NCBI RefSeq assembly: GCF_016903815.1
Contig: NZ_CP069973.1
Strand: one strand, 5' to 3'
DNA length: 64,000 bases
Source of the DNA: Escherichia coli
Lineage (GTDB): Bacteria > Pseudomonadota > Gammaproteobacteria > Enterobacterales > Enterobacteriaceae
The notes under the pieces were generated by a model. The model had not been told where the DNA came from. It saw only the letters and a program-made list of their open reading frames with translations, and did not search any database. The position numbers and the translations under genes are program-made. Shown one piece after another: positions 54,116 through 57,100 of the stretch. The first letter of the stretch is position 1, and each line of letters opens with the position of its first letter.

Positions 54116-57100
54116 TTATAAAGAGCATGTTTAATAACTGATAAAGCCGAGTCAGATTTAGCTTGACTAAATACTAGTTCCCAGCCGCCAACATTCATCA
54201 TTTCTTCATACTTTATACCTTGAGCACTAGCCAAACTTACAGCTTCGTGAAAACTTGTTAACATTATTTGGCTCTCTACAGAAGTTGAATGTGAGAGACC
54301 GTTCCGAGTCAAATATTCAGCCATATGTTTTGTAGCATTTGGGTGTACCCAGAAAGTACCATTAGCAGTTATAATCTCAAAAGATTTTGGGATAGAGGTG
54401 CCAGGGATAGCAGATTGAGTTGCCTTGATAAAATCATAGATATTTTTCTTACCAAAATTAGATGCAGCCCTTGCTGCCCGACTGGCTTCAAGGTTAGCCA
54501 GCACCCGTTGTCTGATTATGGGACATGTTGCTAATCCCAAAGGATCAACATACCCACACGGATTCGGCACATACCGGTAAGTCTGCTCACCCCCCAGCAA
54601 CCCCAGCGGATCACTCACCAGGTACATCCCTGTTTCCGGCTCGTAATACCGGAACCGGTTATAGCACAGCCCGGATTCCGCATCCTGCCACTGTCCTGCA
54701 TACAGCAGGCCGGGGTCGGCTTCCGCGTCCAGTTCCCCGCGCGGGTCCGGGTAGCCGGTGTCTGCGGGCAGGCTGAGTGCCAGCCCCCACAGGCTGGTCT
54801 GCCCCGGTCGCCAGACGGTTTTACCTTCACTGTTAAAGAGCATCAGCGGACGGCCCGTCAGGTCGCTCACCGCATGATTCGTCCGCGTCACCCACTGCGG
54901 GGCCACGGACGGATGCGGCTGCCGTACCCGGCTGCACTGCTGGCTTATCAGCTCAAAGCCGTTAAACACCAGGTGCCGTACGCTGTACAGTTTATCATCG
55001 CGGTATTCCCGGATTTCCGCAATACTGTCGCCGTCCCACAGGTACGTGATGCGGATTTTCTTCCGGTCGCAGCGTTTTTCCGTCCGTCTGCCGCTGGCGT
55101 CGTGGCGGTATTCCCACTGTTCACCCTGTGCGCTGCAATACCCGGTCAGCTGGTCACGGCTGTCCCACCGGAACCGCTCTGTTTCCGGGCGGTAGCCGTC
55201 ACGGTGTTTTATGCGGCTGACCATCCGGCCTGCGGCGTCATAGTCATACTGCGTGTTTCCGGCCTGTTTCAGCCGGTGGCCTCCGGCATACAGGTCAGTC
55301 TCTTCACTTATCTGGTGCCTGCCCGCAGACTGCGCCTTCAGGTAGCCGCAGCTGTCATAGCCATAAGTCTCGTCGCCTTCGCCATAGCCCAGCCCGGTGC
55401 CTGAGGCTGTCACCGCCGTGACCTGGCCGTTCCGGTCCAGCCGGTACTCCCGGCGAGTTTCCCGTCCGTAATCTTCCCGGCTGGTGACAGCCGACACATT
55501 ACCCGCGCTGTCGTAACGGTACTCCCGTACCAGTGAGGGGAGCAGTCCGCCCCATGTGGCTTCCGCCGGGAAAAATCCGGCGCGCTGGCTGGTAAGCTGA
55601 CCGGCTGCATTCCAGCCCTGTTCACAGGCAAAACCCCGGTTACTGTGCCGGAGCACTTCACGTCCTGCCTCATCACGGCTGAACGTCAGCGTCTCATCCC
55701 CCGGCAGGATAACCTCCGTCAGTTCTCCGGCGGCGTTGTAGCGGTAGGTGGTTTTCAGCAGGGATTCACCGGGGTGTCTGTCGTGTTCATCTTCCGGTGG
55801 CAGGATACAGCGGATGACGGTGTGTTCGTCGGGGTAGTGGTACTCAATGCCCCGTCGGCCCTGAGTGGTGACATTCACCCGCCCGCGTTCGTCATAGCCG
55901 GTGCGCTGTGATATGCCGTCCGGGCTGAAGATACCCGTCAGCCTGCCGGATTTGTCATACGCATACTGCGTTTTGCCTTCCGGCGTGATGACTTCTGCCA
56001 GGCGGCCTGCGGCGTCCCGGCTGTAGAGGATGGTTTCCTCCAGACCGTTAACCCTGGCGGTACACAGGCCATCGGCATCATAACGGTAACGCCAGACCAC
56101 GCCGCCCCAGTCGCGCTCTTCCGTCACCCGGCCACAGTTGTCCAGAAGATAACGGTATGACTCGCCCTGCGGATTGATGACTTCTGTCAGTTGCAGCGTG
56201 TCTTTATCGTAGCGGTACTGCCAGCGGTGGCCTTCACCGTCCGTTCGCGCCACCGGCAAATCAAACGGGCCGTACTCCATTGTCCAGACAACACCGTTAC
56301 CGTCCGTGTACGCCAGCAGGTTGCCGTGACGGTCGTAGCGGAATCCTTCCGCGCCGGTGCCAGTGCGCTCAAGGCCGCTCAGTTTATGGTGCTGCTGCCA
56401 CTGTAACCGCACTGACTGACCGCCGGGGCCGCGCATCTTCACCGGCAGGTCGTGACCGCTGTATTCGGTGTGGTGTTCACGGCCCATCACGTCGGTGAGT
56501 GTTTCCGGCCGGTTGTGGTGGTCGTACTCTATGCCCAGACGCCGTTCATCCTGGCGGAATATCCCCGACAGCAGCCCCTGAGCGGTATACGCCAGCCGGG
56601 TCTCTTCGCCCTGTGGCGACACCAGGCTTACCGGCAGGCCGCGTTCATCGCACTGCTGCGTCCACGTCTGCCCGGCAGGGTCGGTGATGTTGCTGAGCAG
56701 GCCGCGCTCATCATAGCGGTACTACCACTCCACGCCGTCTGCCGCCGTGTAACGGCTTAACTGACCGTGTGCGGCGGCGTATTCAAATTTCTCCACCCGT
56801 CCGGCAGGGGAGTGGCGGGCCAGCAGGTGATGGAATTCATCCCATTCATACGTGATGGTGCTGCCGTCCGGCGCTTCTTCCCGCAGAATATTGCCGTCAG
56901 GATCATAGTAATAACGGTGAGTGCCCTTGCCGTCCGTCACGGTGGTGCAGCCGTCCCCATAGTCCAGCGTGGCGTTGTAATAGCCTTCCGCCCCGGTGAC
57001 GGTCACGCACCGGCCCTGTGCATCGTAGGTGAAACGGCTCCACGTCTGGTCGTTATCGGACCAGCGGATGATCCGGTCCGCAGCGTCGTACTCATAAAAC

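Follow-up and report, generated by a model that had tools for sequence, protein, structure and literature searches.

A recent amber mutation has very probably made a pseudogene of a class I prePAAR-PAAR-Rhs effector gene in an Escherichia coli clone that includes ST405

The rhs gene examined here is very probably a recent pseudogene of a class I prePAAR-PAAR-Rhs effector of the T6SS, in which a single CAG-to-TAG change (Gln740 to amber) has become fixed in an Escherichia coli clone that includes ST405. It lies in a stretch of 64,000 nucleotides (contig NZ_CP069973.1 of assembly GCF_016903815.1), the whole of which is referred to as the window. The original prediction, that the amber codon could mark a naturally disarmed effector, is supported with a qualification, in that the allele is an ordinary clone-specific nonsense pseudogene with no special regulatory or recoding device, by which one effector is lost, and it had already been flagged as a pseudogene ("internal stop") by RefSeq/PGAP in the annotation of strain 7/2, from which the annotation was read and whose sequence is identical to the window in this region. 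The gene belongs to an island downstream of cusS with the order vgrG, eag chaperone, rhs and immunity gene, and the features of this island are as follows.

59450 to 61351, minus strand: vgrG, T6SS spike gene that opens the cusS-adjacent island, 633 aa (NCBIfam TIGR03361 VI_Rhs_Vgr, E = 1e-187; WP_001522505.1 in strain 7/2)
58961 to 59422, minus strand: eag chaperone gene (DcrB/DUF1795), 153 aa (Pfam DcrB PF08786, E = 1.7e-27; "DcrB-related protein", WP_001160804.1)
56722 to 58941, minus strand: 5' part of the rhs pseudogene, 739 codons and TAG (ORF list and translation; Pfam prePAAR_I, PAAR_motif, DUF6531 and RHS_repeat)
58753 to 58782, minus strand: prePAAR motif AARLGDEIQH, aa 54-63 (regular expression; Pfam prePAAR_I, E = 8.4e-5)
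58012 to 58146, minus strand: PAAR motif region, aa 266-310 (Pfam PF05488, E = 5.5e-10; NCBIfam T6SS_PAAR_dom, E = 1e-10)
56722 to 56724, minus strand: amber TAG, codon 740, formerly CAG (Gln) and changed by a C-to-T transition (CAG in strains 503025 and EFF60)
54112 to 56721, minus strand: rhs frame 3' of the TAG, 869 codons and TGA (translation; Pfam RHS_repeat seven times and RHS; NCBIfam Rhs_assc_core TIGR03696, E = 2.6e-18)
54532 to 54561, minus strand: PxxxxDPxGL motif PCGYVDPLGL, aa 1461-1470, end of the Rhs core and C-terminal autocleavage site (regular expression)
54115 to 54531, minus strand: C-terminal toxin, aa 1471-1609, homologue of CdiA-CT EC869 (PDB 7vmc_B, E = 8.1e-41)
53582 to 54115, minus strand: intact immunity gene, an ORF of 177 aa (174 aa in PGAP, WP_001370340.1), homologue of CdiI EC869 (PDB 7vmc_C, E = 3.4e-18)

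The rhs frame extends over 1,610 codons, from 58941 to 54112, and on translation its sole interruption is the TAG at 56724-56722. This is codon 740, and the ATG at 58941 starts an upstream ORF of 739 codons, while downstream of the TAG the same frame remains open for 869 sense codons and ends with the TGA at 54114-54112. Because 869 stop-free codons would arise in random sequence with a probability of about (61/64)^869, or roughly 1e-18, the frame represents a single gene with one stop in it rather than two adjoining ORFs. RHS/YD repeats are found by Pfam on either side of the TAG, and translation confirms that the frame is continuous across it (...AADGVEW*YRYDERGLL...), as had been claimed for the range 56700-56745, which includes the codon. 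The original prediction did not give the strand, which for rhs is the minus strand. The TAG falls within a YD repeat (W-x-Y-x-YD), after some 350 (about one third) of the roughly 1,080 residues of the cocoon. It was correctly placed after the PAAR region and before the toxin, and the 739-aa ORF does have the anticipated composition of a prePAAR/TM/PAAR protein with a partial Rhs shell, in that the motif, the TMD, the PAAR and the first third of the cocoon are all found in it. The downstream part encodes the other two thirds of the cocoon, the autocleavage motif and, after PxxxxDPxGL, the toxin that had been expected beyond the stop.

Judged by its sequence, the gene is by descent, and as a pseudogene, a class I prePAAR-TMD-PAAR-Rhs T6SS effector. 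The prePAAR motif follows the published definition AARxxDxxxH (Ahmad et al., 2020, PMC7773334) and directly precedes a TMD stretch of hydrophobic residues (aa 64-105), assigned by hydropathy scan alone with a Kyte-Doolittle mean of at least 1.6; the same scan gives a second, weaker hydrophobic stretch past the PAAR, at aa 324-342. The role of the C-terminal aspartyl protease of Rhs proteins has been described (PMC8765631), and the role of DcrB/DUF1795 proteins as Eag chaperones is likewise known (Ahmad et al., 2020, PMC7773334). The sequence features of a class I prePAAR Rhs effector are present, namely the prePAAR motif, a TM region before the PAAR, the PAAR itself, a cocoon with an autocleavage motif, and adjacent eag and vgrG genes, and the single uninterrupted ORF of a full-length member of the class is broken by the TAG at codon 740.

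The toxin is related to the EF-Tu/Ts- and GTP-dependent tRNase CdiA-CT EC869, which has a BECR fold and acts on the tRNA acceptor stem (PMC9071432), with toxin residues 15-139 (125 residues) aligned to residues 182-306 of 7vmc_B. When residues are mapped to the 7vmc chain (chain number = paper number + 21, PMC9071432), the putative catalytic residues His216 and His281 of CdiA-CT EC869 are found to be kept (in NATKHM and KHALYK). Arg271, mutation of which lowers the toxicity of CdiA-CT EC869 (PMC9071432), is absent, the aligned residue being Ala with Lys next to it. The toxin is a homologue of EC869-type tRNases whose own activity and dependence on EF-Tu are putative, and with the TAG upstream of it this copy would go untranslated. 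Neither the toxin nor the immunity protein has a family match in Pfam or NCBIfam, and both were identified by PDB sequence search. The immunity gene remains, as had been proposed, with its ORF directly 3' of the toxin and overlapping the rhs TGA, as befits a gene of the CdiI EC869 type, and the protein WP_001370340.1 is annotated in strains 7/2, 503025, EFF60 and 1579. A consensus scan for a promoter of the immunity gene inside rhs gave no candidate (one site against 3.4 expected, and this outside the relevant region).

That codon 740 once encoded Gln emerges from the comparison with homologues that the original prediction had proposed as a check. It is CAG in the intact E. coli homologues of strains 503025 and EFF60, and Gln is present in five of seven aligned Rhs homologues (from E. 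coli, Dickeya, Xenorhabdus and others), which were obtained in a search with a 332-aa segment that returned mostly short, partial entries. None of the seven terminates at this site. That the site is an ordinary boundary between domains, or a regular stop, which would have told against a disarmed effector, is ruled out, as the homologues continue with Gln, Arg or Asp inside the YD repeat. An 81-mer centred on the TAG has an exact match in 92 of 5,426 complete E. coli genomes, corresponding to 92 of the 2,112 that contain the region, while the repaired 81-mer with CAG is found exactly only in EFF60 among the same 5,426. Two of the TAG carriers, WCHEC96200 and WCHEC4533, have been published as ST405, phylogroup D. 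The stop is therefore premature, present in one lineage where homologues carry a sense codon, as is characteristic of a nonsense pseudogene. A recent event is indicated by the fact that rhs in the lineage of the window, when polarised against 503025, contains only two derived changes, the TAG and the missense change R1210Q. With one derived missense change downstream of the TAG, divergence is too small for an estimate of dN/dS, and the nearly undecayed frame 3' of the stop is consistent with a recent pseudogene and equally with continued use. In strain 1579, the TAG is accompanied by an IS1 in the toxin-coding 3' end of rhs, and the immunity gene is intact.

Translation would end at codon 740 and yield a prePAAR-TMD-PAAR protein of 739 aa that carries part of an unclosed cocoon but neither the C-terminal aspartyl protease plug nor the tRNase toxin. 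Without these, no toxin would be encapsulated, loaded onto VgrG or delivered. The fragment may yet bind the Eag chaperone and VgrG, and the immunity gene would still guard against the toxin of relatives in which the effector is intact. The complete T6SS cluster of strain 7/2 lies elsewhere in the genome, near a tRNA-Asp gene, and encodes Hcp, an RHS core protein and another VgrG, with no pseudogene flag on any of them. The loss is therefore confined to one effector, and the strain would keep interbacterial weaponry by means of this main cluster and its intact RHS core gene. Downstream of the immunity gene there is also an array of orphan fragments, as annotated by PGAP in strain 7/2.

49412 to 53102, minus strand: orphan-fragment array of small hypothetical genes, a 300-bp PAAR fragment, and an rhs C-terminal fragment with a DUF4304 gene
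50245 to 50943, minus strand: orphan rhs C-terminal fragment of this array
49676 to 50233, minus strand: DUF4304 gene of the orphan rhs fragment

The array shares repeats of 212-328 bp with the main rhs gene at 94-95% identity (internal BLAST). Rescue of the TAG by recombination with the orphan rhs C-terminal fragment was considered and is ruled out, because the TAG is upstream of the block of homology that this fragment has with the main gene.

Several other explanations of the TAG were weighed against a simple nonsense pseudogene. Sequencing error, the other circumstance that would have undermined the original prediction, is excluded because the 81-mer with TAG agrees exactly among 92 complete genomes that were assembled independently and come from many laboratories, countries and platforms. 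The TAG is, moreover, a substitution, whereas long-read errors are typically indels, and the chance that it is a sequencing or assembly artefact, for which only the prior that isolated in-frame stops can be errors would speak, is virtually nil. A genuine TAG might be decoded, whether through a suppressor tRNA or because ribosomes naturally read through it to an appreciable extent and insert Gln, such that some full-length active effector is made. This would accommodate the fact that the window has three internal stops (rhs Q740, nfrB Q376 and allD W199), every one of them amber, which lie within 35 kb and have become fixed in one and the same set of 92-93 genomes of the clone, while no internal stop in a non-IS gene was found in six other 50-kb regions (300 kb) of strain 7/2. 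However, G:C-to-A:T transitions (in CAG and TGG codons) produce TAG more often than any other stop, with an amber share of 40-57% as estimated from codon usage, which makes three of three amber stops plausible by chance (roughly 0.06-0.2, by an estimate of the same kind), an explanation that works only moderately well. Read-through would also agree with a frame that is intact 3' of the TAG, with the retention of both putative catalytic histidines, with an undamaged immunity gene and with the ancestral residue, as Gln is the amino acid most often put in by near-cognate read-through of UAG. On the other hand, the anticodons in strain 7/2 are wild type (CTG in glnV/glnX, TTG in glnU/glnW), the 5,426 genomes contain no full-length exact supF, su7 or supP allele, and the supD allele occurs among them only in DSM 498, an unrelated strain that is not in the clone; this check covered the classical single-step alleles. 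The base after the TAG is T, and UAG-U is a context that Poole et al. in 1995 reportedly found to terminate efficiently in E. coli, and the IS1 of strain 1579 sits in the toxin region of a member of the clone. Decoding of the TAG is hence highly improbable, and a similarly low probability attaches to the wider proposal that the three amber stops reflect a clone, ST405, that evolved or lives with UAG suppression or raised read-through, for example through a suppressor tRNA that is unrecognised or carried by a prophage, with low-level production of the Rhs tRNase effector as the consequence.

Two further explanations accept termination at codon 740 and assign a use to what is left. The mutation might not simply have destroyed the effector but have given the 739-aa protein a structural role, as a PAAR tip without a toxin by which the neighboring VgrG is stabilized or sharpened, and the intact prePAAR motif, TMD, PAAR, eag and vgrG would all allow this. 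According to the summary given in PMC8651079, the PAAR domain alone stabilizes the trimeric VgrG in Enterobacter cloacae, but the full Rhs domain is needed for efficient T6SS assembly (Donato et al., 2020). Efficient firing supported by the fragment is therefore unlikely, as in E. cloacae only full-length PAAR-Rhs proteins achieve it. Some 350 residues of unclosed beta-cocoon would also be likely to misfold, and there is no sign of selection in a single transition, in a single clone, that places the stop off a domain boundary, all of which makes the structural role unlikely. Alternatively, the N-terminal ORF might act non-covalently with a separately initiated C-terminal protein, such as that of the 836-codon ORF with a GTG start at 56622 (836 aa), and some class I prePAAR effectors are indeed encoded by two ORFs, for example SF0266/SF0267 of Shigella (Ahmad et al., 2020, PMC7773334). 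The published pairs, however, consist of a prePAAR-TMD-PAAR protein and a separate Rhs-toxin protein, whereas the break in the window is within a YD repeat of the cocoon. The GTG is 33 codons past the TAG, so that residues would be lost, it is not preceded by a Shine-Dalgarno-like sequence (context GTAAGCCTGGTG), and the split came about through one recent SNP that is limited to one clone. A functional two-piece effector is on these grounds highly improbable, and the nonsense pseudogene remains the preferred explanation.

As a nonsense pseudogene, the allele means that the globally disseminated multidrug-resistant ST405 clone is without one T6SS Rhs effector, an EC869-type tRNase, and has kept the immunity gene, the chaperone and VgrG. 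Such a loss is typical of the turnover of polymorphic-toxin loci and is of little importance past bookkeeping. The TAG of ST405 and the CAG of its close relatives nevertheless form a natural allele pair that could be used to probe a partial-cocoon PAAR protein in T6SS assembly, and the amber SNP is usable as a lineage marker.

The rhs gene of the window closely resembles the class I prePAAR Rhs/Eag systems, such as RhsA/EagR1 of P. protegens and Rhs1/SciW of Salmonella Typhimurium (PMC7773334; Günther et al., 2022, PMC8765631), with which it shares the prePAAR, TMD, PAAR, DUF6531 plug, YD cocoon and PxxxxDPxGL motif, as well as a variable C-terminal toxin with its immunity gene 3' and eag (DcrB/DUF1795) and vgrG genes 5'. 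It differs from them in the amber at residue 740, with which no full-length effector would be made under normal decoding, and in the extra, weaker hydrophobic stretch at aa 324-342. With SF0266/SF0267 of Shigella flexneri (PMC7773334), it has in common a prePAAR-TMD-PAAR ORF followed by an ORF with Rhs repeats and a toxin, but the Shigella pair represents a PAAR module and an Rhs module, while the break in the window is a nonsense codon inside the cocoon that homologues read through. Compared with the CdiA-CT EC869/CdiI EC869 pair (PDB 7VMC), H216, H281 and Y220 are conserved in the window, R271 and R263 are replaced (by A with K next to it, and by G, respectively), and the toxin is carried on an Rhs/T6SS scaffold rather than the CdiA/type V scaffold of EC869. 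Finally, orphan immunity genes and decayed rhs/cdi loci are known (Koskiniemi et al., 2014, as cited in PMC11925235), and in such orphan arrays, as in the window, an immunity gene is retained while its cognate toxin is non-functional, and rhs fragments with small genes of their own follow downstream; unlike in the arrays, the inactivated copy in the window is the main, full-length gene.

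The window is chromosomal E. coli DNA, and its rhs pseudogene is part of a 12.9-kb locus that adjoins cusS and contains vgrG, eag, rhs and a small downstream gene, in that order. The locus is the same, without differences, in the annotated genome of strain 7/2 (NZ_CP023820.1), from which the remaining 50 kb of the window differs at 3 positions. The features of the locus and of the conceptual Rhs protein, read through its internal stop, are as follows.

59450-61351: vgrG (TIGR03361, E = 1e-187)
58961-59422: eag chaperone gene (Pfam DcrB/DUF1795, E = 1.7e-27)
58941-54112, minus strand: rhs pseudogene
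53582-54115: small gene downstream of rhs (immunity)
Rhs aa 54-63: prePAAR motif AARLGDEIQH
Rhs aa 64-105: hydrophobic TMD stretch
Rhs aa 266-310: PAAR motif
Rhs aa 393-457: DUF6531 plug domain
Thereafter: YD repeats, then the Rhs-associated core with the motif PCGYVDPLGL at aa 1461-1470
C-terminus: domain of 139 aa

According to the ORF listing and its translation, the minus-strand frame opens with ATG at 58941 and runs for 739 codons to a TAG at 56724-56722, beyond which it is free of stops over 869 codons until a TGA at 54114-54112. The peptide originally quoted across a continuous frame (AADGVEW-stop-YRYDERGLL) matches this translation exactly. Because an open stretch of 869 codons is improbable by chance [∼(61/64)^869, ∼1e-18] and RHS/YD repeats are found by Pfam both upstream and downstream of the TAG, this is a single gene cut by a single stop codon. 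The Rhs region extends from about aa 393, where the DUF6531 plug domain starts, to aa 1470, so the stop at codon 740 spares roughly its first third.

Codon 740 is CAG (Gln) in the E. coli homologues that are intact here, those of 503025 and of the very close relative EFF60, and the lesion is one C-to-T transition (CAG to TAG). In the protein alignment this position falls within a W-x-Y-x-YD repeat. It is occupied by Q in the homologues from E. coli, Xenorhabdus and Dickeya (two sequences) and in P0039, a homologue from a JGI sample, and by R or D in the two remaining homologues; none of the aligned homologues terminates there. The 81-mer centered on the TAG is present exactly in 92 of 5,426 complete E. 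coli genomes, which excludes a sequencing error, while the region itself is held by 2,112 and the 81-mer repaired to CAG is exact only in EFF60. Carriers of the TAG include an O102:H6 strain as well as WCHEC96200 and WCHEC4533, both published as ST405, phylogroup D, and RefSeq/PGAP already labels the gene a pseudogene (“internal stop”).

The window and EFF60 are separated by 11 substitutions in 14 kb, and only two derived changes in rhs, the TAG and the missense change R1210Q, fall on the window lineage when polarized against 503025. Given so few changes, the inactivation is recent, and an undecayed frame beyond the TAG is to be expected. One TAG carrier, strain 1579 (NZ_CP103718.1; segment L008, 5550-6400), has an IS1 inside the toxin-coding 3′ end of rhs and an intact immunity gene. 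In EFF60 (NZ_CP086678.1; segment L005, 4823-9660), the nearest relative that has CAG, an extra A at codon 1568 of rhs shifts the frame of the toxin domain. The extra base marks either an independent second inactivation or an assembly error in a homopolymer. EFF60 also has an nfrB annotated as frameshifted and a lambdoid prophage with its integrase beside a tRNA-Arg gene, where the window has no prophage.

The sequence beyond the stop includes a predicted toxin domain. Pfam and NCBIfam gave no family for the Rhs C-terminal domain or for the protein encoded downstream, but in a PDB sequence search the former matched the tRNase CdiA-CT of E. coli EC869 (7vmc_B, E = 8.1e-41), both of whose putative catalytic histidines are kept, and the latter matched the immunity protein CdiI (7vmc_C, E = 3.4e-18). 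Homology to a toxin-immunity complex of solved structure thus backs the labels “toxin” and “immunity gene” in the original prediction. CdiA-CT EC869 cuts specific tRNAs in their acceptor stem and needs EF-Tu/Ts and GTP (PMC9071432). The toxin-immunity module occurs in 138 of the 5,426 genomes, and in 503025 it is an orphan behind a main rhs gene bearing another toxin.

Two further genes in the window have in-frame stops.

21435-22484, minus strand: allD (ureidoglycolate dehydrogenase), TAG at 21888-21890, codon 199, TGG (Trp) to TAG
45724-47961, minus strand: nfrB (c-di-GMP-activated glycosyltransferase), TAG at 46834-46836, codon 376 (Q376), CAG to TAG

The allD gene is labeled “internal stop” by PGAP and its amber 81-mer is exact in 92 of the 5,426 genomes, a count equal to that of the rhs TAG, while that of nfrB, which adjoins the adsorption-protein gene nfrA, is exact in 93, with CAG in EFF60. 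Since both stops are amber, suppressors that might decode the rhs TAG were looked for. The glutamine tRNAs of strain 7/2 carry no suppressor anticodon (glnV/glnX, CTG; glnU/glnW, TTG), tRNA queries with supF, su7 (trpT) and supP (leuX) anticodons had no full-length exact match in the 5,426 genomes, and the supD allele (serU tRNA, CTA anticodon) matched exactly only in DSM 498 (NZ_CP193717.1, 2931840-2931929), where no annotated feature lies beneath it. Judged on these classical alleles, suppression is unlikely, although a prophage-borne or unusual tRNA could still supply it. If 40-57% of E. coli nonsense mutations are amber, our own estimate from codon usage, three amber stops out of three have a chance of ∼0.06-0.2. 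These three clone-fixed nonsense mutations lie within 35 kb (21888-56724), whereas six other 50-kb samples (300 kb) of strain 7/2 contain no non-IS pseudogene with an internal stop. Taking as given the stop that was noticed first, such a contrast has a chance of ∼0.03. The clustering may reflect chance acting on dispensable genes.

With translation ending at codon 740, no full-length Rhs would be made, the cocoon would stay unclosed, autoproteolysis would be absent and the toxin would be neither made nor delivered. The 739-aa fragment would retain the N-terminus that binds Eag and VgrG. A structural role for it is doubtful, however, since in Enterobacter cloacae, as the work of Donato et al. 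(2020) is summarized in PMC8651079, the PAAR domain alone stabilizes VgrG but efficient T6SS assembly needs full-length PAAR-Rhs. The immunity gene would still be of use against relatives with an intact toxin. The proposal of a disarmed effector with a surviving immunity gene is supported by the CAG ancestor, the clone-wide TAG and the 7vmc-like toxin beyond the stop, and rhs is an ordinary, clone-specific nonsense pseudogene. The strain as a whole is not disarmed; near a tRNA-Asp gene, strain 7/2 carries a complete T6SS cluster that encodes Hcp, VgrG and an RHS core protein and has no pseudogene flags annotated among its genes.

The window has other rhs sequences. Downstream of the immunity gene, 48159-53102 is an array made up of small hypothetical genes, a PAAR fragment of 300 bp, a C-terminal rhs fragment together with a DUF4304 gene, another rhs remnant and an ISAs1 transposase, and its fragments share blocks of 212-328 bp with the main rhs gene at 94-95% identity. 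Judged by the annotation of the near-identical strain 7/2, a separate rhs locus lies at 1-4772 of the window. It lacks PAAR and is the 3′ part of a gene for a classical “RHS element core protein”, with an IS1 element and then small fragments directly behind it. Elsewhere in strain 7/2 (segment L012, 1000001-1031300), a P2-like prophage carries reverse-transcriptase family, FRG-domain and Shedu immune nuclease family genes, which are candidate defense cargo.

The conceptual Rhs shares the architecture of Eag chaperone-dependent class I prePAAR Rhs effectors (Ahmad et al., 2020, PMC7773334) and matches the RhsA cocoon with its C-terminal aspartyl-protease plug (PMC8765631). By descent it belongs to the class I prePAAR Rhs effectors, with an EC869-type tRNase, and lacks only an intact ORF. 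It is unlike the published split prePAAR/Rhs pairs such as Shigella SF0266/SF0267. In their description one ORF covers prePAAR, TMD and PAAR and the next, separate one covers Rhs and toxin, whereas the break in the window sits inside the cocoon.
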